Source: a virus
IMG/VR virus record: IMGVR_UViG_3300045988_143931
Span: 96,001-160,000 of that record
Length of the DNA: 64,000 nt
Direction: 5' to 3' (one strand)
The notes under the pieces were generated by a model. That model did not search any database and was not told the DNA's origin. It saw nothing but the letters and a program-made list of their open reading frames with translations. This document shows, in pieces, positions 8,743 to 59,714 of the stretch (the stretch's first letter is position 1; each line of letters opens with the position of its first letter). Made by a program: the position numbers and the translations under genes.

Positions 8743-8744
8743 AT

Positions 8745-10013: not shown

Positions 10014-10661
10014 CTAACACTTCTTTTTATTCCAACACTTCTTCACATAACAACCAAATTTAATAATTTTAACCCCTAGAATATCTATCCCTTTAATTAT
10101 AATCTTAATAAGAAAAATAACTAAGAATACCTCTCCACATACAAATGCATATTTGTAGACCATACCTTCATTATTAAATAAAGCTGCAATTATAAATGAC
10201 ATATAAATAATTAGTCCATCTACTCCACAGAAAAATATGAACTTATCGTCTTTAGATGAATACATAACACTCTGTATAAAATTAGGTTCAAGATATCCTA
10301 ATCTTCTGCGTAGATATGAATTTCTATCATATATGTTATTTTTGAAATTATTGTAGTTATATTTATTATGATTGTCTTTTAATATTATATATGTTTTATG
10401 AGTGGATCTGTCAATATATTTGATATTATAATCATTCATATAAGTTGATATATGATTTATAATATCATTTATAGTATTTTCGTTATATTCCTTATTATTG
10501 CTTAAAATTTTATACAAGGGATAATAAATTTGATTATATGCAATTTTCATATTATCTAATGGAATATTCTTATTATAATTATATTTGGTTACAATAAAGG
10601 TAAATATACCTGTTATAAGTGCAGGAAGAATTATTTTTAATATTTCTATAAATGATTTCAT
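10014..10661 (-). CDS. multi-pass membrane protein, function unknown (moron-like)
   Basis: 215 aa. One N-terminal and several C-terminal hydrophobic segments. Asn/Tyr/Lys-rich and very AT-rich coding sequence. Confidence 0.55.
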   Translation of the reverse strand: MKSFIEILKIILPALITGIFTFIVTKYNYNKNIPLDNMKIAYNQIYYPLYKILSNNKEYNENTINDIINHISTYMNDYNIKYIDRSTHKTYIILKDNHNKYNYNNFKNNIYDRNSYLRRRLGYLEPNFIQSVMYSSKDDKFIFFCGVDGLIIYMSFIIAALFNNEGMVYKYAFVCGEVFLVIFLIKIIIKGIDILGVKIIKFGCYVKKCWNKKKC

Positions 10662-10685
10662 AATTTTACCTCATTATATTTTTAC

Positions 10686-10714
10686 TTGCATCAGCTAATT
10701 ATATGTGTTACAAT
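10686..10714 (+). promoter_or_regulatory. near-consensus sigma-A type promoter for a small antisense RNA
   Basis: TTGCAT (10686-10691), 17-nt spacer, TGtTACAAT extended -10 (TACAAT at 10709-10714). Confidence 0.65.
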
Positions 10715-10720
10715 ACAAAC

Positions 10721-10840
10721 CAAAAGAAACAAGCAATTATCCGTTAGACGGTTGAGCCAATATAATCAACAATGGCTAAATAAATATAATATTCAACACA
10801 TTAATGACCGTGCTTTGGCGAGTGGCGGTCATTTTTGTGT
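10721..10840 (+). ncRNA. ~120-nt sRNA candidate, antisense to the 3' part of the small toxin-like ORF
   Basis: Bounded by the promoter above and a terminator (ATGACCG...CGGTCAT then TTTTTGTGTTT, 10804-10842). Internal hairpins CCGT-TAGA-CGG and AGCCA...TGGCT. Only a 3-codon ORF inside. Confidence 0.5.
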
Positions 10841-10929
10841 TTATCAAGAACTCTAACTAGGTATGTAGAGCAAATTCCGCTTACTATACCAGTTACTAAT
10901 GTAAAAATTAGTAAACCACAAAATGTCAC
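10801..10929 (-). CDS. 42-aa hydrophobic peptide, type I toxin-like
   Basis: GTG at 10929, 6 nt after GGAGGA (complement of 10936-10941). Translation is MTFCGLLIFTLVTGIVSGICSTYLVRVLDKHKNDRHSPKHGH: one TM helix plus a charged tail. TAA at 10803-10801. Below ORF-track cutoff. Confidence 0.5.
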   Translation of the reverse strand: MTFCGLLIFTLVTGIVSGICSTYLVRVLDKHKNDRHSPKHGH

Positions 10930-11453
10930 GTATTATCCTCCTTTGTAAGTATTTCCTACATGATGTCACGAGGATATTTATATAACAGAACATCACTGCT
11001 CTGACGTGACTCAAACACCTAACCATCTCTATCTAGCCAAACAAAGATGTTTGAATAACCGCTTGTCCTTTACATTATAAATCATATGACATTTTCTGTC
11101 AAAATATTCCAAAAAAAGAGAATAATATAACATATAAATCAATCAGAGAATATAAAAGTATCTTAAAAAGAATTTCTTTTGTATGGGTTGAGTCTAATTT
11201 GATCCTAGTTTTCTTAATTCTATCGACATCTAGGATAATCGGTTAATTTCAACCTTAGAAATGAGAAGATGTTCGTGCCTCTCTGCGTTAATGAGAATCC
11301 TTAATTGACGGATAAGAGTCATTAAATCTTATCAATTGATCTTTACTCCGAAGACCGAAAATATATAGAGAATAATCAGTAAGCATGGATACCTTGTGTG
11401 TCTTAGGGTACTTAGTTTGTACCTGAATAATAAAGTGGGTGATACCCACATTA

Positions 11454-11526
11454 GATCTGTTCGTCTAGTGGTCTAGGACATCGCCCTTTCACGGCGGCAA
11501 CAGGAGTCCGAATCTCCTACAGATCA
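11454..11526 (+). tRNA. tRNA-Glu(UUC): tRNA-Glu (anticodon TTC); unusual T-loop TCCGAAT
   Basis: GATCTGT-TC-GTCTAGTGGTCTAGGAC-A-TCGCC-CTTTCAC-GGCGG-CAAC-AGGAG-TCCGAAT-CTCCT-ACAGATC-A. Collinear with the canonical bacterial tRNA-Glu pattern. Confidence 0.85.
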
Positions 11527-11764
11527 TTATGCGGTAAACCTGATGTGAAAACCTATTTTTTGGATGCATACGAAACTTAGGCGTGTAAGCTCAACACTTA
11601 CTACCGCCCTTATGTTTTTTATAACTTTTTAGTTATTATAACAACATATTCTATTTAAACTTTTTCTTAGATATTTTCGATCAGCATATGGAGAGATATA
11701 TAAAAAAAGTTGTTCAAATCCTTTTTTATTATGATATACTGTATATCAAAAAAGGAGAAAAATT

Positions 11765-12469
11765 ATGGAAAATTTACTCAAAAAGTTTAATATATTTGAT
11801 TTATTTACTATGCTTATTCCAGGTGTGATTATTTTAACTTTATCCTGTATTTCATTATCATTCGAATATTATGACAGGTGGACAAATTGGGAAAAGGAAA
11901 AATATGTAATCTTTTTTGTAATTAGTTACTTGTTAGGTATAGTTTTTCAACAGCTTGGAAATATAGTTGATCAAAAATGGATATATAGACATGTATATGG
12001 TGGAAGCCCTAGAGAAATTTTTCTTTTAAAAGATAAATATATGAAAATACTAAATAATGAATTGGCTTATAAGGACGCATTAAATATAAAAAAGTATTTA
12101 ATTGATTATTTTGATATAGATACCAAAAATATTAGAAATATTGAACAACAAAAGCAATTAAACGCAAGAATATTTTCATATTGTTTAAACATTGTAGAAA
12201 TAAATGGGTTATCATTCAAGGCTGATAAAATGCTTGTTATTTCTGAAATGAGTAGATCATTGTCGTTAGGGTTTATATCTATAATTTTATTAAATCTGCT
12301 TATGATTCTATTTTTTCATTTTCATTATGTATTTTTTCTTATGGAAAATATTATATTATTATTTTTAGCTTATATATTTTTTGATAGAAAAAAACAATAT
12401 GAAAAGTATAGATATATAATTATTTTACGAATGTTTTCAATATATATGAGAGATAAAGAAATTAAATAA
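11765..12469 (+). CDS. multi-pass membrane protein, function unknown (moron-like)
   Basis: 234 aa. ATG after AAAGGAGAAAA. Hydrophobic N- and C-terminal segments flank a soluble middle. Preceded by TGaTATACT extended -10. Confidence 0.55.
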   Translation: MENLLKKFNIFDLFTMLIPGVIILTLSCISLSFEYYDRWTNWEKEKYVIFFVISYLLGIVFQQLGNIVDQKWIYRHVYGGSPREIFLLKDKYMKILNNELAYKDALNIKKYLIDYFDIDTKNIRNIEQQKQLNARIFSYCLNIVEINGLSFKADKMLVISEMSRSLSLGFISIILLNLLMILFFHFHYVFFLMENIILLFLAYIFFDRKKQYEKYRYIIILRMFSIYMRDKEIK

Positions 12470-12477
12470 AATAGTAA

Positions 12478-12510
12478 AGAGTCATTTCCTTTGGAGGTGG
12501 CTCTTTTGTT
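12478..12510 (+). terminator. intrinsic terminator (12-bp stem)
   Basis: AGAGTCATTTCC-TTT-GGAGGTGGCTCT followed by TTTGTT. Confidence 0.7.
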
Positions 12511-12512
12511 AT

Positions 12513-12600
12513 GTAGTATTGGCAGAGTTGGTATTGCACCTGATTGCTAATCAGAGGTCATCGTTTATTCGGTGCATAGGTTCAAGTCCTATATACTACG
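12513..12600 (+). tRNA. tRNA-Ser(GCU): tRNA-Ser (anticodon GCT), class II
   Basis: Acceptor GTAGTAT/ATACTAC, anticodon loop TTGCTAA, long variable arm, T arm ATAGG-TTCAAGT-CCTAT. One C:A mismatch at the top of the anticodon stem. Confidence 0.8.
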
Positions 12601-12605
12601 CTCAT

Positions 12606-12689
12606 GCCGTGTGTCCGATTGGTCGAGGGTGCTGTCTTGAAAACAGTCTGGATGTAAAAGTCTTTAGGGTTCGAATCCCTAACACGGCG
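12606..12689 (+). tRNA. tRNA-Ser(UGA): tRNA-Ser (anticodon TGA), class II
   Basis: Acceptor GCCGTGT/ACACGGC, anticodon loop CTTGAAA, long variable arm, T arm TAGGG-TTCGAAT-CCCTA. Confidence 0.85.
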
Positions 12690-12738
12690 TTCTAAATAAA
12701 TTGCACTTTCATTGGAAATTTAATATTGGAAATTATGA

Positions 12739-27236: not shown

Positions 27237-28343
27237 ATGTATTTAGATAATGCAGCGACAACTCCATTAAAATCGGAAGTTAAGGATTATATTATATCTC
27301 TTTTTGACACATACCAGAATCCATCGTCAATGTATCAATCTGGTGTTAATGTAAAACAAATAATTACCACAGCACGAAATAATGTCGCCAAATTCATCAA
27401 TGCAAATCCAGAAAATATTATTTTTACATCGGGCGGTTCAGCCAACAATACGCTTTTTATTAAAGGTTATACTCAGAGAAATGAATGTAGAGTGTTATAC
27501 TCTCCTACTTCACATAAATCGGTGCTGAAGTGTGTAGAATCACTTAAATATAAGTGTTCACTTAAAGTTGATTATACAGGAAAAATTGATCTTCAAGATC
27601 TTAAAGAATGTTTATCTATAGATACAATGAAGAAGCTTGTAGTTATAGAACATGCTAACTCTGAGATTGGAACAATTCAAGATATAAAACAGATTATTGA
27701 AATGTGTCATTTTTATAACGCAATAGTCTATGTAGATTGTACAGGTTCTATTAGTCAAATCCCTGTAGATATAAGAACTTTAGATGTTGATGGTTTGGGG
27801 TTTTCCGCACATAAGCTTTCAGCTCTAAAGGGCGTAGGTATTTTATATAAGAAGAAACATATCGAACTTGAACCACTTATATATGGTTCACAAGAACAAG
27901 GGTTGTTTGGTGGTACTGAAAATGTAATAGGTATAGCCGCACTTGGTAAGGCAGTTGAGAATTATGATTACTCTTCTATTACATCTAATAATCGTAATTA
28001 TATCTATAATAACATTAAAAATAATATTCCAGATTCATATTTGGTTGGAGCTGATTTGAAGCATAGATTACCACATAATCTATACATATGTTTTAAAGGA
28101 ATACAAGCTGAATCATTGATGATATTACTTGATATGAATGGGTATCAAGTATCAACTGGAAGTGCTTGTACAAGTGGCGATTTAACACCATCTTCTACTC
28201 TATTGGCTATTAAAATGAATAATGGAGATATAAATAGTTGTATAAGAATTACATTAAGTGGTAAAGAAGAGATTACTGAACTGAATACGTTTTGTGAAGT
28301 ATTGAAGAGGTGTATAGAAACATTAAGACAAATGAATAAATAA
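27237..28343 (+). CDS. cysteine desulfurase (NifS/IscS-like class V aminotransferase)
   Basis: PLP-lysine motif SAHKLSALKGVGILY, GGTENV, and active-site loop STGSACTSG. 368 aa is the right size. Confidence 0.8.
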   Translation: MYLDNAATTPLKSEVKDYIISLFDTYQNPSSMYQSGVNVKQIITTARNNVAKFINANPENIIFTSGGSANNTLFIKGYTQRNECRVLYSPTSHKSVLKCVESLKYKCSLKVDYTGKIDLQDLKECLSIDTMKKLVVIEHANSEIGTIQDIKQIIEMCHFYNAIVYVDCTGSISQIPVDIRTLDVDGLGFSAHKLSALKGVGILYKKKHIELEPLIYGSQEQGLFGGTENVIGIAALGKAVENYDYSSITSNNRNYIYNNIKNNIPDSYLVGADLKHRLPHNLYICFKGIQAESLMILLDMNGYQVSTGSACTSGDLTPSSTLLAIKMNNGDINSCIRITLSGKEEITELNTFCEVLKRCIETLRQMNK

Positions 28344-33094: not shown

Positions 33095-33571
33095 ATGGGT
33101 TCATTTAGACTAGATCAGAATTTTATAAATAAGATAGAAAAACAATGTCAAGAAAAAGCAAAAAATTTAGCACATGAGGCTTCTGAAAAATTAACAAATC
33201 ATTATATTACATTGCTTGATTGGTATTATGCCGATTATCAACCAAAACTGAATAAATACGATGAACCATATTATATTCGTACCTTCAATTTATATAAATC
33301 AGCTCACAAATATTATAAAAATGGAACTGATAGATTTTATGGTGGTGTTCGTATTGATGGTTCTACTATGAAAGATTATTCAGGAATTAGAAATGCTTCA
33401 ATATCTGGACAGGATTTATTGAGTACATATATCTATAATCCATCTGGTACATGGCATGGTGGTGATTGGTATGGTGGTTATGGAGTTACGGCGAGTTTTA
33501 ACATTTATAACGAAATGCAAAAATATAAAAATAAATTAATAAAAGACATGCAGAATAGATGCAAAATCTAA
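33095..33571 (+). CDS. hypothetical protein preceding tape measure (possible chaperone position)
   Basis: 158 aa. GGAGGTG upstream. Confidence 0.4.
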   Translation: MGSFRLDQNFINKIEKQCQEKAKNLAHEASEKLTNHYITLLDWYYADYQPKLNKYDEPYYIRTFNLYKSAHKYYKNGTDRFYGGVRIDGSTMKDYSGIRNASISGQDLLSTYIYNPSGTWHGGDWYGGYGVTASFNIYNEMQKYKNKLIKDMQNRCKI

Positions 33572-33585
33572 TAAGGAGGAATAAA

Positions 33586-36500
33586 ATGGCAAAAGATGGT
33601 ATAGTAAGTATTGCTATTGATTATAAAAACGAGCTTAATCAAATGATTCGTGATTATGAATCTGCTTTAACTAAGATGGCTTCAAATGATAAGTTATCAA
33701 AAGGAATGAAAGCACAATTTGATAATACAATTGCTGAGTTAAAGCGTTTTAAGGCAGATATGGAAAAATCTTTTTCTGATTTAAGTATCGGAAAAGTGGA
33801 TAAAAACAGTTTTAAAGCTTTTAAACAAACTGTTAATAAGAATTTTGAATCTGTTCGTGCAGAAATTGATAGATTAGATTTAGCTGTTTCAACTATAAAT
33901 TCACAGATAAAAATACTTGGAAATGGTGTTGATATAAGTAAGATAAGTAGTCAATTTAAAGATTTTCAAGATTATGTACAGAATACAAATAATGCTATTG
34001 ATACAATGATTAAAAAACTTGATGGTCAAGGCATTTCATTAATATCATTTGATGATAGCGCAATAAATCAAGCAAAGTCTCAGATAAAAGAAATTAATAA
34101 ATTACTTAAAAGTACAGATGAGTTCAGCGATGCAAAAGGCTCAAAATATGAATTATTTGATACAGAACAAGCTCAAGCAGAACTAGATGTTCTTGCCAAA
34201 GATTTAAAAAATACTCTTGAATTAATTGAAAAATCTGAATCGGAACTTTCAAATTTTGATAAAAATAGCATCGGTTTTGAAAAAACTATTAACCAAATCA
34301 ATATATTGAAATTAAAAGCTGCCGATTTACACGATTCTATTCAACAGTTAATAGATATTCCCGATAAAACAGGAGAATATACATTTGGTGATTCAATACT
34401 TATTTCTGATGACAATGTTGATAAAAAAGTATCTGAATATGAAAAAATTGTAAAAGGAACTTTAGATGAAATTCGTGAATCTGCCATCAAAACTCGTGAA
34501 GAGTTAGATAAAATCGTAACACCTACCTCTTCCAAAACAGCTTCTGCAAAAATATCAGATAAACTCAACCCAAATTCAGCAGAATTAGTAACTGGTGTAA
34601 CAATTGAAACCACTTCATCTGAATTATGGAAAAAGTTATCTCCTATTATTGAAGATTTACAAAATATCCTTAATAAAAATCCCGTTGTTGCTCCTGTAAA
34701 ACTTGTAGTAGCACCAAATGCAGTATCTTCTGAAAAAAATGGTGAAGTTGGCACTATTAGCAAATCTTATTCGAAGAAGTATCAAAGAGAATTAGCAAAA
34801 ACTGGTGAAGATGCAGTTATTGATTTAGAGGGTGTTTATAAGAAAACATTTACTTCTATAATGGATGAAGCCGTTTCTTATTCTAAGGAAACAATTTCTA
34901 AAATTCAAAATATCTTTGAATCTTCTCCTATTAAATTACATTTTGATTTTAATGAAGAAGAATTTAAGAAAATATCAGATGCACTTCTCTCTTCTGATTC
35001 TGATAAAAAGATTGACATTACAGATCAGATTGCAGAATCAAAAAAGGAGGTTAATGAACTTGCTGAAAAACTTGCCGAAGTTAATGAATTATTAAATTCA
35101 GCAGATTCAAAGGATTTTAGTTTTAAAGGGTTTGATAAATTCGCAGAAGAAATTTCAAAAAGCCTTGGTCAATTAGTCGAATTACAGTCAATGTTAAAGA
35201 CATTACAGAATATAGAATCTACTCTCGCTAGAGCATCAGGTGTAAGTAGTGTCACTGATATTGAAACACAGTGGCAGAATGTATCTAAGTTAATTGAGAA
35301 TTCTATTAAGTTAGATGGTACTTTTAGAAAAAATGCAAATGTAGATAAACTTGCTTCAGAATATAACAAGTATCTCAATATGGGTGGTACTAATGAGTTA
35401 TCATTTATTGGAAAGGTTGGGAAACTTGAAAATAGCAAGAATATTATGGAAGCTATTTTTTCAAAAGCTAAAGAGCTAAATTCTCAAAAAGTAGATACAT
35501 CTTCTGTAGATAAAGCAGATGATGAATTGAAATCAGTATCTTCTACTCTCGATGACGTTATCTCTCGTCTTGACCATATGATAAATTTGACAAGAGATAT
35601 TGGTAATACATTTTATAAAATGTTCAAAGACACTTCTGTTAGTGATATAGATAAACAGTGGTCTTCTATCGAATCTAAGTTCAAATCTATTGCTGATGAA
35701 TCTGGCAAAATAAATCTCTCTAAACAGAAAAAAGATATTCAAGAATTAGTTGAAATGTACCAAAAGTATGCAAATACTGGTGGTATGAAAACTCCTTTTG
35801 ATTTAACAGATAATGCAGAAACCATTAAAAAAATAAATAAAGTCTATGAACAGATGAATTCAAAAAAAAATAGAACTTCTGTTACGAATGAGTCAAAGAA
35901 TTTCATTAAAGTAGAGGATTCTGTTAATAGTCTCACTTCTGCTATTAATACAAAGACTGAAGCTATTAAAACAGAAGCTAATACAATGGAATTAGCTGCA
36001 AGAGCTGAAGTCAAATCTATTCAGAAGATTATTGATGCATTAAATCCATTAATTGAGAGAATAGAAAGTATTCCTGAATTAAAGATACCAAAAGAAGATA
36101 CTATTCTTCCACATAAGGAATCGAATATTTCATCTGGAAAGAAAGACGCATTTCCCTCTAATGAAGAAGTAAAACAGAAAGAAAAGTTAGCTGAAGCAAC
36201 TAGAAAACTTCGTCAAGAAGAAAAACAGTCAAGTCAAGATTCTGTTAATTCTGCGTTAAAAGATCAAGTTTCTGCATGGAAACAGATTCAATCTATTCGT
36301 GAAAAAATAGCAAAGGTTGATAATCCAGATGTTATTAACCAACTTCAAGAAACTAAAAGATATTACCAGCAACAGTATTTAGATGCAACTAAAATTCTAA
36401 AATCTAATCAAGATTTATACGATGCACAAGGACAGTTAAATAGGCTTAAACAAATTGAGTTAGAAACAACTGCAAAAATTAGTCAATATCAAAGTAAAAA

Positions 36501-38196
36501 TACTGAAAGTGTTTCAAAGTATAATCAATCTCTTAAAGATAATGCAACTCAAAAATTATCTAATTATAATAACACTTCTAAATATACTCCTGAATTTATT
36601 GAACGAGTTAATTCAAAAATCTCTGAAATTGGACAACTTGATATTACGAAACCAGAAGATGTTGCTAGATTAAAAACAATTGACAGTGAAGTTCAGAAAA
36701 TTGTCGATGATTCAAAGTTATTAGAGAATAAACTTGTTAAACAAGATTCTAAGATTGCTGACATTATATCACAGATGAAGATTTTTAGGTCACAAAATAC
36801 TAATATGTCTTCATCACAAAAACAAGCATTAGATGATGTAATTAATTATGCCGAAAAACTTGCAAATACTGGTAAGGTAACTGCCCAACAAATAGAAAAG
36901 ATAAAAATATCATTTTCTGGATTAAAAGCTGTAGTTGCATCAAGTGGTAATATGGGTAAAAACTTCTTTAGTCAAATCGGTAATCGTCTTACTGATATGA
37001 ACAGCAAATTTGTTGCTCAGTTTTTGAGTTGGCAAGATTGGATAAGATATATTCAGCAAGGCGTAAATACTATTCGTGAACTTGATACAGCGATGACTGA
37101 AGTTAAAAAAGTATCGGATGCAACAGAAACACAATATTCATCATTTAGAGACACTATTTCTTCTACTGCAAAAGAGATTGCAACAACAAATAAAGAATTG
37201 CTTAATTCTAGTGCAGATTTCTTAAGATTAGGATATAGTCTTGATCAAGCAAGCGATCTTGCTAAAAACGCCACATTATTTGTTAATGTCGGTGATGGTG
37301 TTGATATTACAGAAGCTACCGAAGACATGATTACAGCTATGAAAGCTTTTGATATCCAAGCTGAAGATAGCATTAAAATTGTTGATGATTATAACCAGAT
37401 TGGCAACCAGTTTGCGCTCTCTGCTTCTGATATTGGTGAAGCAATGAAACGTTCTGCATCTGCTCTTGAAACAGGTAATAATAGTTTTGAACAAAGTATC
37501 GGTCTTATTACTGCTATGAATGAAATTGTTCAAAATAGTGAAAACACAGGTAACTCTCTTAAGGTTTTAAGCCTGCGTTTAAGAGGTGCAAAGGCAGAAT
37601 TAGAGGATATGCAGGAAGACACAGATGGTCTTTGTGATTCAACCTCTAAGCTTCGTGAACAAATTAAATCTTTGACTGGTGTTGATATTATGTTAGATGA
37701 CAATACATTTAAATCAACAACAGACATTATTAAAGAATTAGGTGCTGTTTGGGATAAATTATCCGATTCTTCACAAGCTGCAACTCTTGAACTTATAGCT
37801 GGAAAATCAAGGGCGAATAATGTAGCGGCGTTACTTAAAAACTATCAAAGAATTGATGAAGTTATGGAAAGCCTTGGTGATGCCGAGGGTTCAGCAATGC
37901 GTGAAAATGAAGCTATAGTTGATTCAATCGATGGACGAATTAAGAAACTATCTGCTTCTATGGAAGATTTTTGGCAAAAAGCAATAAATACAGATTTTGT
38001 AAAAAATATTGTATCATCACTTGATACCATATTAAATCTATTAACAAAAATCATTGATCAGTTCGGTTTACTTCCAACTATTATTGGTGTTGGTGGTGCT
38101 GGTACAGGTATCTTTAAGTTTATTAAGAATTTTGATTGGGTTTTAAAACCTTACACAAAAAACTCTCTCCAACAGTTTTTAGTTGGTCAATCATAG
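33586..38196 (+). CDS. tail tape-measure protein, N-terminal half (1,536 aa) including TP901-type core region
   Basis: ATG 33586 after AAGGAGG. ~1,150 aa of coiled-coil-type sequence, then TEATEDMITAMKAFDIQAEDSIKIVDDYNQIGNQFALSASDIGEAMKRSASALE...LKVLSLRLRG (TMP core). A Gly/Ala hydrophobic segment follows (IIGVGGAGTGIF). TAG at 38194-38196. Confidence 0.8.
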   Translation: MAKDGIVSIAIDYKNELNQMIRDYESALTKMASNDKLSKGMKAQFDNTIAELKRFKADMEKSFSDLSIGKVDKNSFKAFKQTVNKNFESVRAEIDRLDLAVSTINSQIKILGNGVDISKISSQFKDFQDYVQNTNNAIDTMIKKLDGQGISLISFDDSAINQAKSQIKEINKLLKSTDEFSDAKGSKYELFDTEQAQAELDVLAKDLKNTLELIEKSESELSNFDKNSIGFEKTINQINILKLKAADLHDSIQQLIDIPDKTGEYTFGDSILISDDNVDKKVSEYEKIVKGTLDEIRESAIKTREELDKIVTPTSSKTASAKISDKLNPNSAELVTGVTIETTSSELWKKLSPIIEDLQNILNKNPVVAPVKLVVAPNAVSSEKNGEVGTISKSYSKKYQRELAKTGEDAVIDLEGVYKKTFTSIMDEAVSYSKETISKIQNIFESSPIKLHFDFNEEEFKKISDALLSSDSDKKIDITDQIAESKKEVNELAEKLAEVNELLNSADSKDFSFKGFDKFAEEISKSLGQLVELQSMLKTLQNIESTLARASGVSSVTDIETQWQNVSKLIENSIKLDGTFRKNANVDKLASEYNKYLNMGGTNELSFIGKVGKLENSKNIMEAIFSKAKELNSQKVDTSSVDKADDELKSVSSTLDDVISRLDHMINLTRDIGNTFYKMFKDTSVSDIDKQWSSIESKFKSIADESGKINLSKQKKDIQELVEMYQKYANTGGMKTPFDLTDNAETIKKINKVYEQMNSKKNRTSVTNESKNFIKVEDSVNSLTSAINTKTEAIKTEANTMELAARAEVKSIQKIIDALNPLIERIESIPELKIPKEDTILPHKESNISSGKKDAFPSNEEVKQKEKLAEATRKLRQEEKQSSQDSVNSALKDQVSAWKQIQSIREKIAKVDNPDVINQLQETKRYYQQQYLDATKILKSNQDLYDAQGQLNRLKQIELETTAKISQYQSKNTESVSKYNQSLKDNATQKLSNYNNTSKYTPEFIERVNSKISEIGQLDITKPEDVARLKTIDSEVQKIVDDSKLLENKLVKQDSKIADIISQMKIFRSQNTNMSSSQKQALDDVINYAEKLANTGKVTAQQIEKIKISFSGLKAVVASSGNMGKNFFSQIGNRLTDMNSKFVAQFLSWQDWIRYIQQGVNTIRELDTAMTEVKKVSDATETQYSSFRDTISSTAKEIATTNKELLNSSADFLRLGYSLDQASDLAKNATLFVNVGDGVDITEATEDMITAMKAFDIQAEDSIKIVDDYNQIGNQFALSASDIGEAMKRSASALETGNNSFEQSIGLITAMNEIVQNSENTGNSLKVLSLRLRGAKAELEDMQEDTDGLCDSTSKLREQIKSLTGVDIMLDDNTFKSTTDIIKELGAVWDKLSDSSQAATLELIAGKSRANNVAALLKNYQRIDEVMESLGDAEGSAMRENEAIVDSIDGRIKKLSASMEDFWQKAINTDFVKNIVSSLDTILNLLTKIIDQFGLLPTIIGVGGAGTGIFKFIKNFDWVLKPYTKNSLQQFLVGQS
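38165..38185. repeat. left arm of 21-bp inverted repeat bracketing the insert
   Basis: CTCTCCAACAGTTTTTAGTTG is the reverse complement of 43657-43677 (19 Watson-Crick + 2 G:T; the outer 12 nt are perfect). Confidence 0.9.
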
Positions 38197-38859
38197 ATAA
38201 GAGAATAACATAATGGCGTTGTAATCAAGTCTATGGATACATGGGATTCTTAATAAAAAACTCTGCAAACACTTTAGCGGAGTATAAACTTTACATGGAG
38301 GAATAAATGCTTGAATGCTTGGTAGCTTAACAAACTACCCACGGATCACATAACAAACCATAATCCATATAGTTATATTGGATGAGGTTGCGAAAGTAGA
38401 AAAAATTGTATATGTGGATATATGAGAATATCAAGGAGACTTGATAGGTGTCTAAGTATCATTAACAACGGGCAACGAGCAGGACGGTACTCTACATTTT
38501 ATAATGTTGACCATATATAGAAATGAAAGGTCATATATAGAGAATAACTATATAAGAGAGCAATCCCCAACGACATACCCATCCTCTAAGTGAGTCATCG
38601 CCTTAAGTATGACATTCGCTTATAATGCATAGTGTACATTGCGATTTCGGAATTCAGTAATGTACTTGAGTGTGTGTTTCACTCAACTAGGAAATTCCAA
38701 AAATAACTTATAAATAAAATAAATTTTACGGAGGTTTTATTATAGTAAAATATGAAGAAAGAAATTGGTAATTTAATATAAAAAAATAATAAAATAGAGA
38801 GTAGGAAAATCTACTCTCTTATGTAAAAATGATAATAATATTCCCACCAGATTCAATAA

Positions 38860-38940
38860 TTAAAAACATAATTTAATGACAATAAACAACGCTATAAGCG
38901 CAATAACAAAAGACGTGCTCATTCTAATATGGCAATTCAT
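38860..38940 (-). CDS. 26-aa hydrophobic peptide with strong SD, long leader and own terminator
   Basis: ATG at 38940, 8 nt after GGAGGA (complement of 38949-38954). Translation is MNCHIRMSTSFVIALIALFIVIKLCF. Minus-strand terminator AGAGAGTAG/CTACTCTCT at 38796-38819 followed by a T-run. Confidence 0.45.
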   Translation of the reverse strand: MNCHIRMSTSFVIALIALFIVIKLCF

Positions 38941-39109
38941 AATGTCGTTCCTCCTTTTATTAGTTTCTTCTGCTTTGTATACAACAGAAACACTGAAGGG
39001 GTTTATTGCCCAAGCAATACCTGCTCGGCGACCGACTATATTTTTAATTATATATTATCTGGCTCCCTTACGCTTACCTTTTGGATAAGTATGCCTCCCA
39101 GATATTTTT

Positions 39110-39137
39110 ATTATATCATTATATCATATTTTTACAA
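39110..39137 (-). promoter_or_regulatory. sigma-A type promoter driving the 26-aa peptide transcript
   Basis: On the minus strand: TTGTAA (39137-39132), 16-nt spacer, TATAAT (39115-39110). A second overlapping TATAAT lies 8 nt upstream. Confidence 0.5.
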
Positions 39138-39294
39138 TTCAGAACATAGGTTTTGAGGAAAATGTATAGTATTAAAGAGTCTTTTTATGCATATTGACAT
39201 GATCATAAGATTAGTGATTAATAATAAAATAGGACTGTCGTGAAACAGCCCCTACTATTGAAGTAAAGGAGAATAAATATATAAATGAAGAACA

Positions 39295-39480
39295 TTAATG
39301 ATGAAGATTGATATTGATATCCTTAGAAGTCATTTCTGCTAAACTTCCAGTTTTGGAATCACTGTAGTCTTTGCAGATTTTAGCGATGTAACATTTGCCA
39401 ACGATTGAAGCTATGTGGCATATTACATAACATATTCCAAGAATTACTGAACCGATTATCTCGGCATATAATATATTCAA
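39295..39480 (-). CDS. 61-aa small membrane protein (toxin/holin-like)
   Basis: TTG start 10 nt after GGGAGGTG. N-terminal TM IIGSVILGICYVICHIASIV then a polar tail. Minus-strand terminator at ~39232-39256. Confidence 0.5.
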   Translation of the reverse strand: MNILYAEIIGSVILGICYVICHIASIVGKCYIAKICKDYSDSKTGSLAEMTSKDININLHH

Positions 39481-39691
39481 TATGTATTTTCACCTCCCTT
39501 CTTAGTAAGAATATAAATAAGTAGGGAATATTCTTTTAGCCCAGAATGGGCAGATATTTATTCCGACTGCCATAAAAATAGACATTGGGACAACCTTCGG
39601 TTATAGAGTGTTATGGCACACATCTATGTTGTTTCTCCAATGTCTATATTTTACCATTGTATTTAATTCAATACAATCCAGAACAATAGTT

Positions 39692-39868
39692 CTAATTTTG
39701 TAATTGTGAGTTAATATACTCTTCTCTTTCGGATTCCGTCATTGAGAAGAATTTTTCAAATTCTATATCAAGATTTTTGCATTCAATGTTGCATGTTCTG
39801 CATATACATTTAATATAATGCGTGTATGTGATTCTATGACAATTAGGACAGTAATGAATTTTTAACAT
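39692..39868 (-). CDS. 58-aa zinc-ribbon protein
   Basis: ATG 39868 is 6 nt after AGAGG. MLKIHYCPNCHRITYTHYIKCICRTCNIEC. The ORF-track start 39943 would overlap the divergent promoter. Confidence 0.5.
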   Translation of the reverse strand: MLKIHYCPNCHRITYTHYIKCICRTCNIECKNLDIEFEKFFSMTESEREEYINSQLQN

Positions 39869-39964
39869 ATGTAACCTCTGTTTCTCATTGATATAATTGC
39901 AAAAATATTTTATATGTGATATGTTATATGAAAATATTAACATATATGGGAGGTATAATAAAGT

Positions 39965-40939
39965 ATGGATTATACATCTAAAACTCGCTCTTTACAATCA
40001 CTTGTAAAGGATATGAATAAGGGGACAATTAATCTTTCTCATAAATTACAGCGACCAGAGGGACAATGGAATCGTAAGCAAAAATCAGATTTGATTGATT
40101 CACTACTTCGCCATTATCCAATTAATCCAACATATGCAATTGTAGAAGAAGACGGAACTCTATCGGTTATTGACGGTGTTCAGCGTTTATCTACTATAAG
40201 AGATTATATTGAGAATATATTTGCTTTATCAAAGGATATGAATGGTATTATTATTAACGGTGAAGAAAAGAATTTATCAGGTTTAAAATTTGACAAACTT
40301 GATGAAGATGTTAAATCTGAAATTCTTAATGCTGAATTGCAGATTTATAGAATGACCGATTGTACAGAAACAGATATCCGTGAACTTTTCCGAAGACAGA
40401 ATGCAGGGAAACCTCTGTCAAATAAGCTTTTGCGTGTGGTGCATGAATCAGATGAATTTAGTGAAGTGGTCTACTCTCTCGCCAATCATCCATTCATGGA
40501 TAAACTTATGTCACCTACACAAAGAAAGAATGGTACAGATAGAGATATAATTATCCAGGCAATGATGCTTATTTCTTCTAATCAGGAACAGGAATTTACA
40601 TCTTTTAGAACAAAAGATATTGATACTTATGTAACTGATTATGCGGATCAGTATCTTGGTAGAGCTGATACATTAAAAGAGGCTATGGATAGATTCGATG
40701 AATCATTTGATGAAATTAAAATTCCTGTTACCTCTATCCCACAAATATTATATTCAGGTTATCGTATTATTAAAGATAAGAAGTCGTTTACAAAACTTGT
40801 TGATAAGGTTGCCGACTTCTGTATTAATTATGATTCTAATAGTGAGTATAAGCAATTTGTTCAGAATGGAACAGGCTCTAAAGAAAATGTTCGAGGAAGA
40901 TTTGAATATTGGCGAGCAATTGTTAAGACATTACAGTAA
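39965..40939 (+). CDS. DUF262 / ParB-like nuclease-superfamily protein (GmrSD N-terminal-domain type), stand-alone
   Basis: LQRPEGQWNRKQKSDLIDSLLRHYPINP...VIDGVQRLSTIRDY matches the DUF262 'QR..vW...LIDSil.g.P...DGqQRltT' core. No His-Me/DUF1524-like C-terminal motif seen. TGaTATAAT promoter at 39889-39897. Terminator at 40946-40974. Confidence 0.75.
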   Translation: MDYTSKTRSLQSLVKDMNKGTINLSHKLQRPEGQWNRKQKSDLIDSLLRHYPINPTYAIVEEDGTLSVIDGVQRLSTIRDYIENIFALSKDMNGIIINGEEKNLSGLKFDKLDEDVKSEILNAELQIYRMTDCTETDIRELFRRQNAGKPLSNKLLRVVHESDEFSEVVYSLANHPFMDKLMSPTQRKNGTDRDIIIQAMMLISSNQEQEFTSFRTKDIDTYVTDYADQYLGRADTLKEAMDRFDESFDEIKIPVTSIPQILYSGYRIIKDKKSFTKLVDKVADFCINYDSNSEYKQFVQNGTGSKENVRGRFEYWRAIVKTLQ

Positions 40940-41078
40940 TGTTTCAGAGAGTAGTCATTAATTGGCTACTCTTTTATTAAAATAAACAAATGTTCTGATG
41001 GAAATATTTGTAAATATATTTTATAATCATAATAGAAATAAACTTAAGAAGTTTATTATTATGTTATTGGAGAAAAAT

Positions 41079-41390
41079 ATGAGGAACAAATTTTTCATTG
41101 ACAAAAAATTAGTGAAGAAAATTGAAAAAGACTTAAAGAAGCGATGTTCTATCGAAGAAGATTTAAATAAAGATTTAGAACTTTTTAATGAAGAAATAGA
41201 TGATAAAACTGTTCTTTCTATATTTAAATATATTGAAGATTATGGGAATAAGAAGCAAAAAGGTTATTTAGTAGAAATACAAAGTAGATATGAGAATTCT
41301 ACATTACTCATTGATGATACTTTAAAACTTGCTGATTGGTATGATAAAATGTGTAATTTCTATAATAATATCGATGGAATGGATTTATAA
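41079..41390 (+). CDS. hypothetical protein (103 aa)
   Basis: ATG 41079 after GGAGAAAAAT. Lys/Asp/Glu-rich. Confidence 0.4.
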   Translation: MRNKFFIDKKLVKKIEKDLKKRCSIEEDLNKDLELFNEEIDDKTVLSIFKYIEDYGNKKQKGYLVEIQSRYENSTLLIDDTLKLADWYDKMCNFYNNIDGMDL

Positions 41391-41395
41391 GAAAA

Positions 41396-41611
41396 ATGAA
41401 TAAATATATAGTGTTAAGTAAAAAGAAAAATCTTAGTCAATTATATTGTATTATTAAAGATTTAAAGTTGAAGAATACATTGAAAAATAAAAGAACTTCG
41501 ATATGGGAAAATAATGATTTGGAAATTAGTATTGACAAATACATAATTAGAATAACAATTTATTCAAATGAAGATGTTCAATATTATACTAATTATATTT
41601 TACAAAGGTGA
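41396..41611 (+). CDS. hypothetical protein (71 aa)
   Basis: ORF track. Weak RBS. Confidence 0.3.
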   Translation: MNKYIVLSKKKNLSQLYCIIKDLKLKNTLKNKRTSIWENNDLEISIDKYIIRITIYSNEDVQYYTNYILQR

Positions 41612-41615
41612 TAAT

Positions 41616-42092
41616 ATGGAAAAAAAAGAAAGATTAAAGATGATTAATTTTTTAAGCGACATTTTAAGTAAATCAAATATATCAGATTTTAAACATATTG
41701 AGTTAGAAAATGATAAAGATGTTAATTTTTTAATTAGTCCAAAAATTAAATACAAAAACAAAGAGGAAAATATACAACTACAATTAATGATTTATTGTTC
41801 TGACAATGAAAGCTTAAGTATATATTGTCCGTTATTGTATAAATTGTTAGATAAAGATAGCTTGGTATACACTCTATCATCAATTAATGAAGTTAATAGC
41901 AAAGTTGCTATTGGTAAAATTTATATGAATAAAGATAATAATTCTGTGATAAGTTATATTTATAGAGCTTTATTTAATAATATTTATGAAGAATTAACAC
42001 CTCAATTAATTAATGACTATATAGATGCATTTCTATTAACTTCTATTGAGTTTTATTCGAAAATGAAAGAGGTTGTTGATGAAGACAAATAA
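41616..42092 (+). CDS. hypothetical protein (158 aa)
   Basis: ATG 41616 after AAGGTGATAAT. ORF-track start 41568 overlaps the upstream gene. Confidence 0.4.
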   Translation: MEKKERLKMINFLSDILSKSNISDFKHIELENDKDVNFLISPKIKYKNKEENIQLQLMIYCSDNESLSIYCPLLYKLLDKDSLVYTLSSINEVNSKVAIGKIYMNKDNNSVISYIYRALFNNIYEELTPQLINDYIDAFLLTSIEFYSKMKEVVDEDK

Positions 42093-42495
42093 TAATGGTC
42101 ATTTTATTTTATTGTTAGGAGTTTTTATTTTTGCGGCTTTTATTCGCACAATATTGAATTCTAGTAAAAATATAGTTAGTATAATTGCAAGTATTAACAT
42201 TGTATCGTTATGGTTTGTGATATATTTAATTCTTGAAAATGCTCAAAACAAGTTTTATATTAGGCTTAAAAATAATACTGTTTTAGGAAGGCAAACAAAA
42301 ATAAAAAAGAATAATTATTTCAAAAAAGTTATAAAATGGATAGAAATTGTTATATTTATTTTAGGCATTTCTTATGTAATATTTTTTGCGAATAGTATTA
42401 TAAACGATATTATTGGATCTTTCTCATTATTTTTATCTATTGAAGAAGAATATATTTATAATTTAGTTCAAGATATTTTTTATAAAAAGAAATAA
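42079..42495 (+). CDS. membrane protein (3-4 TM segments), function unknown
   Basis: ATG 42079 is 6 nt after AAAGAGG. Hydrophobic segments FILLLGVFIFAAFI, IVSLWFVIYLIL, IVIFILGISYVIFFA. Confidence 0.45.
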   Translation: MKTNNNGHFILLLGVFIFAAFIRTILNSSKNIVSIIASINIVSLWFVIYLILENAQNKFYIRLKNNTVLGRQTKIKKNNYFKKVIKWIEIVIFILGISYVIFFANSIINDIIGSFSLFLSIEEEYIYNLVQDIFYKKK

Positions 42496-42496
42496 T

Positions 42497-42528
42497 AAAA
42501 AGAGCAGGACTAATCTCCTGCTCTTTTA
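42497..42528. terminator. bidirectional intrinsic terminator between convergent island genes
   Basis: AGAGCAGGA-CTAATC-TCCTGCTCT flanked by an A-run upstream and a T-run downstream. Confidence 0.7.
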
Positions 42529-42554
42529 TATTACTCTTCTTTTCTTCTATCCTA

Positions 42555-42674
42555 TCAGTCTTTATCTTCAGATCCGCTACATTCGTCACTGTGTTCACAG
42601 AATTCACAATAACATTCATCTGTATAATCACCTGTTTGCCAACATAGTTCTGTTGGAGACATATCATTGTTCAT
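42555..42674 (-). CDS. 39-aa acidic cysteine-rich peptide
   Basis: ATG 42674 is ~10 nt after AGGAG. Translation is MNNDMSPTELCWQTGDYTDECYCEFCEHSDECSGSEDKD. It stops before the terminator, unlike ORF-track 42437..42667, which reads through it. Confidence 0.4.
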   Translation of the reverse strand: MNNDMSPTELCWQTGDYTDECYCEFCEHSDECSGSEDKD

Positions 42675-42756
42675 AAACTCACCACTCCTCTGCTTAAAAA
42701 TATCTTAATTATACACTTGTTATTTTATCAAATTATTATATGTGAGGTGAATCAAT

Positions 42757-42885
42757 ATGAAATTATCTATAAAGATTAAAATAAATGAAATACGAGAACT
42801 GAAACCAATTGTTGAGTATATAAAGAACTTGGAGAATAATTCTCCCGAACTCAATACAGAGATAGAAATTGAGCTGGGAGAATAA
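42757..42885 (+). CDS. 42-aa hypothetical peptide
   Basis: ATG 42757 is 6 nt after GAGGTGA. Translation is MKLSIKIKINEIRELKPIVEYIKNLENNSPELNTEIEIELGE. Confidence 0.35.
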   Translation: MKLSIKIKINEIRELKPIVEYIKNLENNSPELNTEIEIELGE

Positions 42886-42888
42886 TTA

Positions 42889-43116
42889 TTAGTTTTCTTT
42901 TATAACTTCAATAATTGAAATTTCTGACTTAGAGATGGTAAATGCATTAGTGTCAGAATATAAATGTAAATCATATCCAACTGAATAATGATGATTAAAT
43001 ATTTCTTCATTTTCAAGATTGTATTCTAATACGCCTTTATGACCATAATAGACCTTATTGATATGGTTGTATTCTTGCACTTTACCATCTTTGTTTTTAA
43101 TTTTAAATGTATACAT
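42889..43116 (-). CDS. hypothetical protein (75 aa)
   Basis: ORF track. GAGGAGGA upstream on the minus strand (complement of 43124-43131). Confidence 0.45.
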   Translation of the reverse strand: MYTFKIKNKDGKVQEYNHINKVYYGHKGVLEYNLENEEIFNHHYSVGYDLHLYSDTNAFTISKSEISIIEVIKEN

Positions 43117-43194
43117 AGTATCCTCCTCTGTAATTTGATATTACTATCATACTACATTAAGGAATATTTTACCATTCGGAACATTAGTTCTTAC

Positions 43195-43605
43195 TTAAAA
43201 ATCACTCTTACAATTATTACAGTGCCATTGTTTTTTTACCTTTTGTGAGAATATACCGAACATCGCTACTGATGTTGCTTTTGATACTCCTGATATTTTC
43301 TTACAATTTGTTGAATTACAATATGGACAATGAACTTTATTTAACCAATCTTGTGCTTGGGCGTTAGCTTGGGCGATTTGCTGTGGGGTAAGGTCGGGAA
43401 TCGCAGGATTGTTTTCTTTAGTTCCATATTGTTTACTTAATTCACACCATAGTTGTTGAGCATCGTCATCTGAACAATTTGTTAATTCTTGAATAAACTT
43501 TATTCCTTTTAATGTTTGATTTTGAGCAATTATCACCAACATTTTTGTTGCTTCCGTGCTTTCAATTTGATTATCAAAATAATATTTTGCTTCTTCGTAA
43601 TTCAT
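43195..43605 (-). CDS. hypothetical protein with C-terminal zinc ribbon (136 aa)
   Basis: ATG 43605 is 5 nt after AAAGGGGGG. CPYCNSTNC...CNNCKSDF. ORF-track start 43659 would lie in its own promoter. Confidence 0.5.
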   Translation of the reverse strand: MNYEEAKYYFDNQIESTEATKMLVIIAQNQTLKGIKFIQELTNCSDDDAQQLWCELSKQYGTKENNPAIPDLTPQQIAQANAQAQDWLNKVHCPYCNSTNCKKISGVSKATSVAMFGIFSQKVKKQWHCNNCKSDF

Positions 43606-43630
43606 AATAACCCCCCTTTTTTTTGTTTTT

Positions 43631-43659
43631 ATTATATCAGACAACTCATAAATACGCAA
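43631..43659 (-). promoter_or_regulatory. near-consensus promoter reading into the island from its right end
   Basis: On the minus strand: TTGCGT (43659-43654), 17-nt spacer, TGaTATAAT (TATAAT at 43636-43631). The -35 overlaps the inner end of the right repeat arm. Confidence 0.6.
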
Positions 43660-58517: not shown

Positions 58518-59714
58518 TTAGCAAACTTTTACCATATTCATTGCTATTGCTTCTTGCTCTTTAATTACATGAATATACTTATTATATGTGATGGTTATAT
58601 TAGCATGTCCTAATAGCTTACTTACAACTTCAATTCCTACACCATTTCTTAATAATGTTGAACCAAATGTGTGTCTTAAAGTGTGTAATGTTATATGTTC
58701 GTCCGATTTAATATTTCGTGTTAATCTATCAAGACTACGTTGAAGATTCCTTGCACATTGTCTTGTGTTATTTTTACAACAACAAAAATAATCACTATTT
58801 ATGTTGTTTCTTTTGTCGTATTGTTTTAGTTCTTGAATATAATACAAAGTATTTTCGTTAAGTTTTAGATATCTTTCACCTGCAACAGTTTTTGTGGAAT
58901 TTTTTAAAGCTAAACTCTGTTTTTTACATTGCGAATCTAATGCAACTTTTGTCTGTATTGTTTTATTAATTTTAACTATATTATTTTTAAAATTAAAATC
59001 ATCCCATGTTAATGCAAGTACCTCGCCTGTTCTCAACCCTAGATTCAACATAATAATTAAAACTAAGAAGTCTCTTCCTTTATATTCATCTATCGTTTTG
59101 TATTTGGATACAGCTTCTTTTTTAAATTGTTCTAACTGGTTATCTGTTAGAGAAAACTGTTCTTTAGTTTTAATAACAAGATAACTTTCTGTCGGTAGTT
59201 TAATGTCACTACATGGATTGTTAAATATAATTTTTTCTTTAATTGCTGTTTCGAAACATGGGTTTAATAATTGTATGATTTTTTTTAATCCAGACAAAGC
59301 CAATGGTTTTTTTCCTGATTTTAATGGAGGATTGGCAAATTCCTTAATAAAAACATCTATGTCTTGTGATGTAATATCACAGATATATTTATTGCCGATA
59401 TAAGGTTTAATTTGATGTTGATAAACACTGTATAACCTAGTGTAACTAGAGCCTTCAATTGTTCCAAATTTATAATTACTTAGCCAATATTCTACATAAT
59501 CATTCAGCTTGATTTTTTTTGTTTCTTTAAACCCATTATTAATTTTTTGAAGATAGGATTTAACCTTATTTTTTACTTCTACTTTTGTATTACCATAAAA
59601 GCTTTTTCTAATACCATTGATTGTAATTTTAGCCTCAAACCTATCATCTTTTCGTTGCATTATATTCATATTATTAATAGTTGCCGATATATTGATACTA
59701 TTTATAATTATCAC
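58518..59714 (-). CDS. int: tyrosine integrase
   Basis: 398 aa. GLRTGEVLALTWDDF (Arg), TLHTLRHTFGSTLL (H-x-x-R), LLGHANITITYNKYIH (His...Tyr). N-terminal SAM-like/arm-binding region. The start codon is ambiguous: GTG 59714 is 1 nt from AAAGG. Confidence 0.85.
   Translation of the reverse strand: MIIINSINISATINNMNIMQRKDDRFEAKITINGIRKSFYGNTKVEVKNKVKSYLQKINNGFKETKKIKLNDYVEYWLSNYKFGTIEGSSYTRLYSVYQHQIKPYIGNKYICDITSQDIDVFIKEFANPPLKSGKKPLALSGLKKIIQLLNPCFETAIKEKIIFNNPCSDIKLPTESYLVIKTKEQFSLTDNQLEQFKKEAVSKYKTIDEYKGRDFLVLIIMLNLGLRTGEVLALTWDDFNFKNNIVKINKTIQTKVALDSQCKKQSLALKNSTKTVAGERYLKLNENTLYYIQELKQYDKRNNINSDYFCCCKNNTRQCARNLQRSLDRLTRNIKSDEHITLHTLRHTFGSTLLRNGVGIEVVSKLLGHANITITYNKYIHVIKEQEAIAMNMVKVC

Follow-up and report, generated by a model that had tools for sequence, protein, structure and literature searches.

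The DNA stretch analysed here (the window) comprises 64,000 nucleotides (nt) of a viral genome, positions 96,001 to 160,000 of the IMG/VR record IMGVR_UViG_3300045988_143931, and carries a phage tape-measure gene that is divided by an intervening sequence of 5,520 nt. A preliminary description, made from the letters alone, had placed an island of small genes inside the tape-measure open reading frame (ORF). This location was confirmed and could be sharpened: the tape-measure domain PF10145 lies at amino acids (aa) 1199-1415 of the ORF at 33559-38196 on the plus strand, and the open frame at 43516-48210 is its continuation. Based on the features at the two boundaries, we propose that the tape-measure gene of this gut phage, a temperate phage of Lachnospiraceae, probably contains a giant group I-like intron whose cargo-bearing interior is the island. 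The features of the split gene and of its junctions are the following.

33559-38136, plus strand: exon 1, N-terminal part of the tape-measure gene; preferred end U38136 (...AAT TTT GAT = NFD)
38119-38130, plus strand: exon 1 segment UUUAUUAAGAAU, engaged in a second exon 1 pairing (P1x); complementary to 38246-38257
38137-43656, plus strand: intervening sequence (proposed intron), 5,520 nt; alternative register 38140-43656
38140-38714, plus strand: conserved non-coding structured RNA, proposed ribozyme core; first ~575 nt of the interruption
38165-38185, plus strand: internal guide, P10 strand CUCUCCAACAGUUUUUAGUUG; pairs with exon 2 nt 1-21 (43657-43677)
38186-38193, plus strand: P1 3' strand; G38186-U38136 wobble in the canonical register
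38246-38257, plus strand: intron strand of P1x, AUUCUUAAUAAA; pairs with exon 1 38119-38130
43657-48210, plus strand: exon 2, C-terminal 1,517 aa of the tape-measure protein, without a start codon of its own

The open frame at 43516-48210 has no plausible start codon, and its first 47 codons overlap the minus-strand gene of a 136-aa protein together with the promoter of that gene. In the relatives, protein conservation starts precisely at C43657, where exon 2 opens with CAA UUA AAG ACU GUU GGA GAG (QLKTVGE); several relatives carry an in-frame TAG directly 5' of exon 2, and an ATG occupies this place in only 2 of the distinct junctions. The cultured Enterocloster phage PMBT24 encodes an uninterrupted tape-measure protein of 1,508 aa whose alignment spans the junction, and the metagenomic protein P0090 likewise aligns across it; with a spliced probe, the remaining 119 of the 120 database homologs listed cover about half or less. 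Taken together, the start-less exon 2, the exact point at which conservation begins and the uninterrupted homologs indicate that the flanking frames of ~1,500 codons are the two halves of one tape-measure gene.

On the 5' side, the alternative to U38136 as the end of exon 1 is G38139 (NFDW). The annotated tail of the first ORF (VLKPYTKNSLQQFLVGQS, then the stop) continues to 38194-38196; because 1- and 4-nt indels just past 38150 break this frame in relatives, the tail after exon 1 is considered non-coding. Ribosomes reading through exon 1 into the intervening sequence meet a TAG at 38194 in the frame of the window and a TAG at 38180 in relatives with a 1- or 4-nt deletion, and both stops (38180-38182 and 38194-38196) would halt them at the guide/P1 region.

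A search of IMG/VR with either tape-measure half yielded about 60 loci, and all contigs in that collection holding both halves show a gap between them. In 25 distinct loci the gap measures 2,224-5,832 nt and has identical junction features. Both ~1,500-codon halves are open in these strongly diverged genomes, which argues that the tape-measure gene is in use. A gene killed by the insertion, in a defective prophage, has nothing in its favour beyond the interruption itself, and the recurrence of the same interruption between open halves makes it the least probable of the explanations considered here. The preliminary description, which regarded the region as a DNA island, had left aside how an essential gene survives such an interruption.

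The last nucleotide of the intervening sequence, G43656, is invariant in 25/25 distinct junctions amid upstream sequence that is otherwise unconserved, and the predicted join GAU/CAA is in frame (NFD/QLK), yielding an ORF of 3,043 aa. The guide forms with the start of exon 2 a gapless helix of 21/21 pairs, two of them G-U, that begins at exon 2 position +1; a pairing of this length was reached in 0/1000 Markov shuffles. Exon 2 varies among the relatives between C and U at +4 and between G and A at +9, opposite a guide G and a guide U, respectively. These polymorphisms are absorbed as G-C/G-U and A-U/G-U pairs, which points to pairing at the RNA level rather than to a DNA repeat. The repeat arms reported earlier at the island boundaries were not recovered by a repeat search there, and only this 21-nt inverted complementarity (38165-38185 with 43657-43677), tolerant of G-U, was found. 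The evidence thus points to an intron rather than to a DNA island between repeat arms.

Directly 3' of the guide and contiguous with it, G38186 forms the wobble with U38136 that is followed, in the canonical register, by four Watson-Crick pairs (A35-U87, G34-C88, U33-A89 and U32-A90, counted from 38100). The intron nucleotides U37, G38 and G39 wobble-pair with the guide positions that exon 2 C-A-A would later take. Read in this way, the guide, the wobble and the displaced intron nucleotides are the classical group I P1/P10 layout. P1x consists of 12/12 Watson-Crick pairs, of which 9 never vary across 26 sequences, and complementarity of its length arose in 6/1000 Markov shuffles (p about 0.006); this pairing accounts for 24 nt of exon 1 being conserved at the DNA level. 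An invariant CCAAC at 38567-38571, in the J6/7 position, is complementary to GUUGG at 38182-38186, at the junction of the guide P10 and P1 strands, which could be a docking contact or chance.

The nature of these junctions also bears on excision at the DNA level by a site-specific recombinase before late expression, as with elements in sporulation genes. The phage does encode a tyrosine integrase (58518-59714), but the junctions carry no direct repeats, their complementarity is inverted and tolerates G-U, and searches of Pfam, PHROGs and PADLOC recognised no recombinase in the island. Moreover, a motif from the core of the 575-nt element is present in 41 viral contigs of IMG/VR, in each of them a single time, and no excised junction was found; DNA excision is thus very improbable. 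Three further candidates were rejected: a split intein, as there is no intein motif; translational bypass, given the gap of 5.5 kb; and DNA inversion, which would not restore the frame.

The first ~575 nt of the interruption contain no ORF of 40 aa or more. Across 300 locus pairs, the median pairwise identity of this element is 96% (minimum 85%), and that of the 600 nt of exon on either side of the interruption is 63% and 66%. We drew its structure on an alignment of 26 distinct copies, with helices P1, P2, P2.1, P3, P4, a P5 subdomain that includes a GAAA-loop hairpin, P4', P6 with three hairpins, P3', P8, P9 and P9.1, and a pseudoknot of 38645-48 with 38690-93. The 144 proposed pairs show standard pairing in 99.1% of cells, and 22 of them have compensatory changes, compared with 3.3 +/- 1.3 in shuffled alignments (0/500 reach 22) and 0-3 in slid controls. 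This covariation falls in peripheral helices; the long-range P3 (38298-302 with 38582-86) is invariant, and in P4 (38308-13 with 38476-81) and P6 only one side changes at a time. The segments ...AACGAGCAGG... and ...CCAACGACAUA... are reminiscent of the group I Q and R elements, and the helix order P3-P4-P5-P6-(P7)-P3'-P8-P9 fits group I. Topology, P1/P10 and terminal G therefore all fit a group I intron, a fit that stops short of establishing membership of the family.

The invariant GACAUAC at 38572-38578 can pair with GUGUGUU at 38672-38678 in the P9.1 loop (7 bp, 2 G-U); it is the longest candidate partner of the R-like element, in a topology unlike that of a normal P7. A group II intron was considered and rejected: the interruption starts with UGGGU or GUUUU and ends with G, its 3' end has no conserved sequence, and neither a group II hit in Rfam nor a reverse transcriptase was found. 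A hairpin at 38587-38622 with a 2-nt bulge resembles domain V; it belongs to the variable, covarying part of the element and is accompanied by neither a domain VI nor a 3' AY. No remote homologs of the element were detected with nhmmer and its profile in all fetched loci, no match with blastn against GenBank phages in near and distant modes, and no match to its core motif in the GTDB representative genomes.

Other relatives carry unrelated non-coding elements in the same codon region (…KN-F/V/M-G/D…), followed likewise by islands and a start-less second half. Elements of such other types occupy the tape-measure site at L010:11119-15190, L105:~10840-11600 and L018:11185-~11700 and in loci L013, L017 and L042. 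Two of the other types reach 20.9 and 20.8 bits with RF00028 (E 0.007), weak matches that lie under the gathering score of 50. In the L010 type, a guide pairs with 25 of the first 26 nt of exon 2 with one bulge, exon 2 is preceded by a G, the U that ends exon 1 pairs with the G that follows the guide, and the join KNFG/IFNTFDSD is in frame; the L042 element has a 13-bp exon 2 guide. The same junction logic is thus seen in independent element types. A homolog of the zinc-ribbon gene at the right end of the island also adjoins exon 2 where the island carries another ribozyme type. From these comparisons, the ribozyme module seems to have undergone several replacements at a site that, like the zinc-ribbon gene at its right end, has persisted.

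In loci L061-L064, a second, small element interrupts the tape-measure gene at an upstream position (L061:9013-10021; also L062 and L064) and encodes a 216-aa LAGLIDADG_2 protein. Its P1 consists of UAGGU with GCCUA, including a U-G wobble, it ends in G, and its join to ...NQIGNKFALS... is in frame and restores DDYNQIGNKFALSATD, matching the uninterrupted DDYNQIGNQFALSASD of the window, whose tape-measure gene lacks this interruption. Its P10 is ~4 bp by hand reading, compared with 21-26 bp at the cargo-bearing site. Rfam gave no match to the upstream interruption of L061. In L026 (4157-10693) and L017 (4369-10729), the N-terminal tape-measure half is itself divided among two or three ORFs, with gaps of 545 and 24 nt in L026, which suggests still more interruptions in the tape-measure gene.

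The anatomy of the locus, its conservation, the pairings and the reading frame are read directly from the sequences; from them we infer catalysis, cis-splicing through an internal terminator and any function of the cargo. In the scheme that we propose, the first ~575 nt would form a catalytic RNA. Its guide would hold the last 5 nt of exon 1, with the U38136-G38186 wobble at the splice site, and a second intron segment would hold a further 12 nt of exon 1. The adjoining 21 guide nucleotides would pair with the start of exon 2, drawing G43656 and the splice site 5.4 kb away into the core, and ligation would yield GAU/CAA and a single tape-measure protein of 3,043 aa. The ligated junction would read ...AAUUUUGAU joined to CAAUUAAAG, or ...GAUUGG/CAA... 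in the alternative register; the 30-mer of the predicted ligated junction is AAGAATTTTGATCAAYTWAARACTGTTGGA, with a TGG-containing variant for the alternative register. Since the 3' end of such a ribozyme would require no more than the terminal G and the long pairing with the guide, the intervening stretch would be free for other DNA, and the region between core and 3' splice site would serve as a bay for a mosaic cargo open to exchange. This cargo would consist of small regulators, proteins with toxin domains, membrane peptides, the orphan sensor-like DUF262 protein and the resident zinc-ribbon gene, and it is probably expressed from its own signals, partly from the opposite strand.

Several observations weigh against this interpretation. 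A 7-bp P1 register, UCAAUCA (38187-38193) with UGAUUGG (38133-38139), is thermodynamically better than the canonical one and non-canonical; with exon 1 ending at G38139, it also gives an in-frame join, and as all P1 positions are invariant in the 26 sequences, covariation cannot pick between the two registers. The core helices have no compensatory support, P1, P3 and P7 being invariant and P4 one-sided. A manual search for a P7 with a guanosine-binding G-C pair gave nothing convincing, the candidates being invariant helices of 4-7 bp that are weak or topologically odd. Pfam, PHROGs and PADLOC searches recognised no homing endonuclease in the copy of the window. Rfam, run with gathering and permissive settings on the window, the island, the 700-nt element and five relatives, was silent on the element even at E <= 10 on the 700-nt stretch; as it also missed the upstream interruption of L061 with its canonical junctions, this silence carries little weight. 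Neither a spliced cDNA nor an intron-less allele with these flanks was found in IMG/VR, the JGI metagenomes or the protein collection, which leaves splicing without direct support; the search pattern for ligated exons was too degenerate, and all of its 96 matches were due to chance. Finally, a hairpin at 42498-42527 with a T-rich tract on the plus strand, together with convergent transcription, lies between the core and the 3' splice site, so that cis-splicing would need read-through or antitermination.

The missing ribozyme call in Rfam and the lack of a spliced product in any database would also be expected if no splicing takes place and two separate tape-measure proteins flank an ordinary intergenic moron hotspot. 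The 575-nt RNA would then be an independent non-coding RNA or a leader exerting antisense-type control of downstream translation, and its guide does cover the first 21 nt of the downstream frame, where a translation regulator might bind. The downstream half, however, has neither a start codon nor a ribosome-binding site, and in-frame stops lie just upstream of it in several relatives. The very first codons of exon 2 show synonymous-type variation (CUA/UUA, AAG/AAA), indicating that they are translated. Such a model also gives no reason for the invariance of the terminal G, for the exon 1 pairing next to the guide or for the precise match in frame, and the uninterrupted homologs are one protein. 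We consider it distinctly unlikely.

The hairpin raises a different alternative, namely trans-splicing by the same ribozyme and guides. The tape-measure transcript would end in the island, for example at 42498-42527, and exon 2 would reside on a separate transcript starting near the right end, to be captured by the 21-nt guide and ligated to the first RNA. In agreement with this, the hairpin between core and exon 2 is strongly terminator-like and conserved in many islands, the exon 2 pairing is unusually long beside the hand-read 4-bp P10 of the small upstream intron, and the mosaic pieces at the two ends, the 5' core and the right-end module, evolve independently of each other. On the other hand, no plus-strand promoter for exon 2 was found, and the sole good promoter at the junction faces the opposite way; reports of natural trans-splicing group I introns are, to our knowledge, confined to organelles. 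Trans-splicing therefore appears unlikely. It is also possible, if doubtful, that the 575-nt RNA represents a distinct class of splicing RNA, or a natural bipartite (trans-splicing) one, instead of a divergent group I intron. In that case, ~40 nt of exon pairing (5-7 and 12 nt of exon 1 and 21 nt of exon 2) would join coding segments across kilobases of unrelated, bidirectionally transcribed genes, and the RNA would be a natural programmable RNA-joining device.

Within the proposed intron, the twelve ORFs of the preliminary description are present at their places on both strands in the order minus-minus-minus, five plus, minus-plus-minus-minus, and their hydrophobic, membrane-like, Cys-rich or zinc-ribbon and DUF262 products are as described. 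The features of the island are listed below.

38860-38940, minus strand: 26-aa hydrophobic ORF, gene status uncertain
39110-39137, minus strand: promoter-like TTGTAA-16-TATAAT, good by eye
39295-39480, minus strand: 61-aa membrane-like protein, homologs in 8 distinct islands
39692-39868, minus strand: 58-aa Cys4 zinc-finger-like protein, its cluster in 24/26 distinct islands
39965-40939, plus strand: 324-aa ParB-DUF262 protein, NsnA-like (Pfam GmrSD_N, 1.8e-15)
40998-42495, plus strand: AT-rich block of four ORFs (GC 0.20-0.25), no family assigned
42498-42527, no strand assigned: 12-bp G+C-rich hairpin, terminator-like, could act both ways
42555-42674, minus strand: 39-aa acidic Cys-rich ORF, gene status uncertain
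42889-43116, minus strand: 75-aa protein, homologs in 9 distinct islands
43195-43605, minus strand: 136-aa protein, N-terminal helical domain variable, C-terminal zinc ribbon conserved, in 24/26 islands
43631-43659, minus strand: promoter-like TTGCGT-17-TGaTATAAT, good by eye, missed by the consensus scan

Conservation in relatives supports the 58-aa, 61-aa, 75-aa, 136-aa and DUF262 genes as real; the ORFs of 26, 39 and 42 aa are uncertain candidates. The products of the AT-rich block have 130 aa (or 103 aa from the ATG at 41079), 71 aa, 158-174 aa and 138-140 aa, the last with multiple transmembrane segments; no significant match to them was found in Pfam, PHROGs or PADLOC, and the block is common only to near-identical contigs (L038, 100%; L009, 96%). 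The greater AT-richness attributed to the island as a whole holds for 40750-42500 (GC 0.20-0.25), and the rest (0.29-0.33) resembles the flanks (0.28-0.36).

Terminator-like sites are enriched in the island (7 compared with 1.4 +/- 1.3 expected). They include hairpins at 38796-38819 on the minus strand, near the 26-aa ORF, and at 39231-39252, near the 61-aa gene. The hairpin at 42498-42527 separates the plus-strand cargo from the right-hand minus-strand genes, and its module is kept at 97% in many islands; of the bidirectional action ascribed to it, the minus-strand terminator was recovered by the scan as a 12-bp hairpin, and the plus-strand T-rich tract was recognised by eye only. The claim that each gene has its own promoter did not hold, as promoter-like sites are not enriched in the consensus scan (52 compared with 44.5 +/- 5.8); at this chance level, individual promoters for every gene are not demonstrated, and the expression during lysogeny that had been suggested gains no support. 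The site at 43631-43659 is positioned to drive the 136-aa gene, and its -35 hexamer spans the intron/exon 2 junction.

Clustering the ORFs of 26 distinct islands revealed a mosaic. The near-universal residents are the 58-aa Cys4 protein, whose gene adjoins a gene for a 93-aa XRE-type helix-turn-helix protein in many islands, and the right-end zinc-ribbon protein, whose 136-aa version in the window is encoded by the gene that is always last before exon 2. Among the variable cargo are the 93-aa XRE-type regulator (HTH_3, 8e-9), a Bro-N plus KilAC antirepressor, membrane proteins, and proteins of the DUF262 and DUF3800 families. PemK/MazF toxin domains were recognised in two further proteins (2e-5 and 6e-6, above the curated cut-off). 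With 25 versions of 2,224-5,832 nt, the same junctions and mosaic content, the region is indeed the variable accessory-gene hotspot within the tape-measure gene that had been suspected, with variable content, identical boundaries and enrichment of terminators, not of promoters. The same set of genes was not encountered as an intergenic moron block elsewhere, in a comparison that covered the set and, non-exhaustively, its single genes.

The 136-aa and 58-aa proteins have zinc-ribbon-like Cys motifs and weak family matches in Pfam, PHROGs and PADLOC. For the 136-aa protein, a profile search of the PDB was empty, and an AlphaFold2 (AF2) model (pLDDT 69.5) had no Foldseek match. The right-end zinc-ribbon family is very abundant in gut metagenomes and comprises 663 protein clusters, single clusters occurring on up to 266 contigs; its members are unnamed or called 'zinc-ribbon family protein [Caudoviricetes]'.

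A role of the cargo in defence or anti-defence, as suggested earlier, found no backing in PADLOC, which shows only an orphan NsnA-like protein and no complete system. This 324-aa protein, with its ParB-DUF262 domain, matches NsnA of Menshen over the full length (2.2e-37) and also phrog_2598 (2.9e-42). Menshen is a three-gene NsnABC system in which the sensor NsnA needs NsnB and NsnC in one operon (PMC12065111). In the island, both the NsnB ABC-ATPase and the NsnC effector are absent, and the ORFs after the NsnA-like gene have no ATPase or nuclease match, so that the NsnA-like protein is not a Menshen system.

Elsewhere in the window, the tyrosine integrase is encoded on the minus strand, as is an anaerobic ribonucleotide reductase NrdD (62596-63978); these genes suggest that the phage is probably temperate and carries genes of nucleotide metabolism. 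The window also encodes a GH25/LysM lysin. Six tRNA genes (Asn, Pro, Tyr, Glu, Ser, Ser) lie among ORFs at 4559-12690, with no suppressor tRNA among them. A class-V aminotransferase (cysteine desulfurase-like, Pfam 1.7e-57) is encoded at 27237-28343 on the plus strand, ~5 kb upstream of the tape-measure gene, an unusual auxiliary gene at such a position. The nearest genome match lies in Butyribacter intestini, as a prophage remnant, and a Lachnospira metagenome-assembled genome contains one homolog of the cargo; both point to human-gut Lachnospiraceae as the hosts.

Phage group I introns with one homing-endonuclease ORF in a peripheral loop are known from T4 (td, nrdB, sunY), SPO1 and Twort. 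The proposed intron shares with them, and with the upstream interruption of L061-L064, a split phage gene, the P1 U-G wobble, an adjacent P10 strand, a terminal G, an in-frame join and the tolerance of a foreign ORF inside. In contrast to them, the insert here measures 1.6-5.2 kb and accommodates ORFs on both strands, roughly a dozen at most, with terminators of their own and no recognisable endonuclease; P10 has 21 bp instead of a few, exon 1 has an extra 12-bp pairing, and the core of ~575 nt is invisible to Rfam. IStrons, such as CdISt1 of Clostridioides difficile, consist of a group I ribozyme fused 3' to an IS200/IS605 element. They resemble the present element in having the entire core at the 5' end, a long non-ribozyme module before a distant 3' splice site, and Firmicutes hosts. 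They differ in that no TnpA or TnpB was found in the island of the window or in the cargo representatives, and in that the cargo here consists of mosaic accessory genes at one fixed site in one gene. Morons and the hotspots of P2/P4-like elements are accessory or defence hotspots between conserved phage genes. Conserved flanks, highly variable cargo of toxin, regulator and defence type, own terminators and some own promoters are common to these and the present island, whereas the island lies within a coding sequence and one of its boundaries is a proposed ribozyme instead of a gene end; a hotspot in such a position would depend on removal at the RNA level.

Introns in phage structural genes, tape-measure genes included, are already known. 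A literature search found no earlier description of such a hotspot within a tape-measure gene, in line with the preliminary description, and no report of an intron with a multi-gene, bidirectional, exchangeable accessory island or of a P10 of 21-26 bp. If splicing is confirmed, such introns are probably under-counted in metagenomic phage genomes, as Rfam misses both this core and a neighbouring interruption with canonical junctions. The long guide pairing would then hint at the way in which a ribozyme locates a splice site at kilobase distance, perhaps on a separate RNA, which is of practical interest for RNA-joining tools. Mobile introns would also be linked with phage moron and defence hotspots, two fields that are usually separate, and the finding would account for split or truncated tape-measure calls in abundant human-gut Lachnospiraceae phages. 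Overall, a self-splicing intron would then be both a vehicle and a safe harbour for fast-exchanging multi-gene cargo in an essential structural gene.

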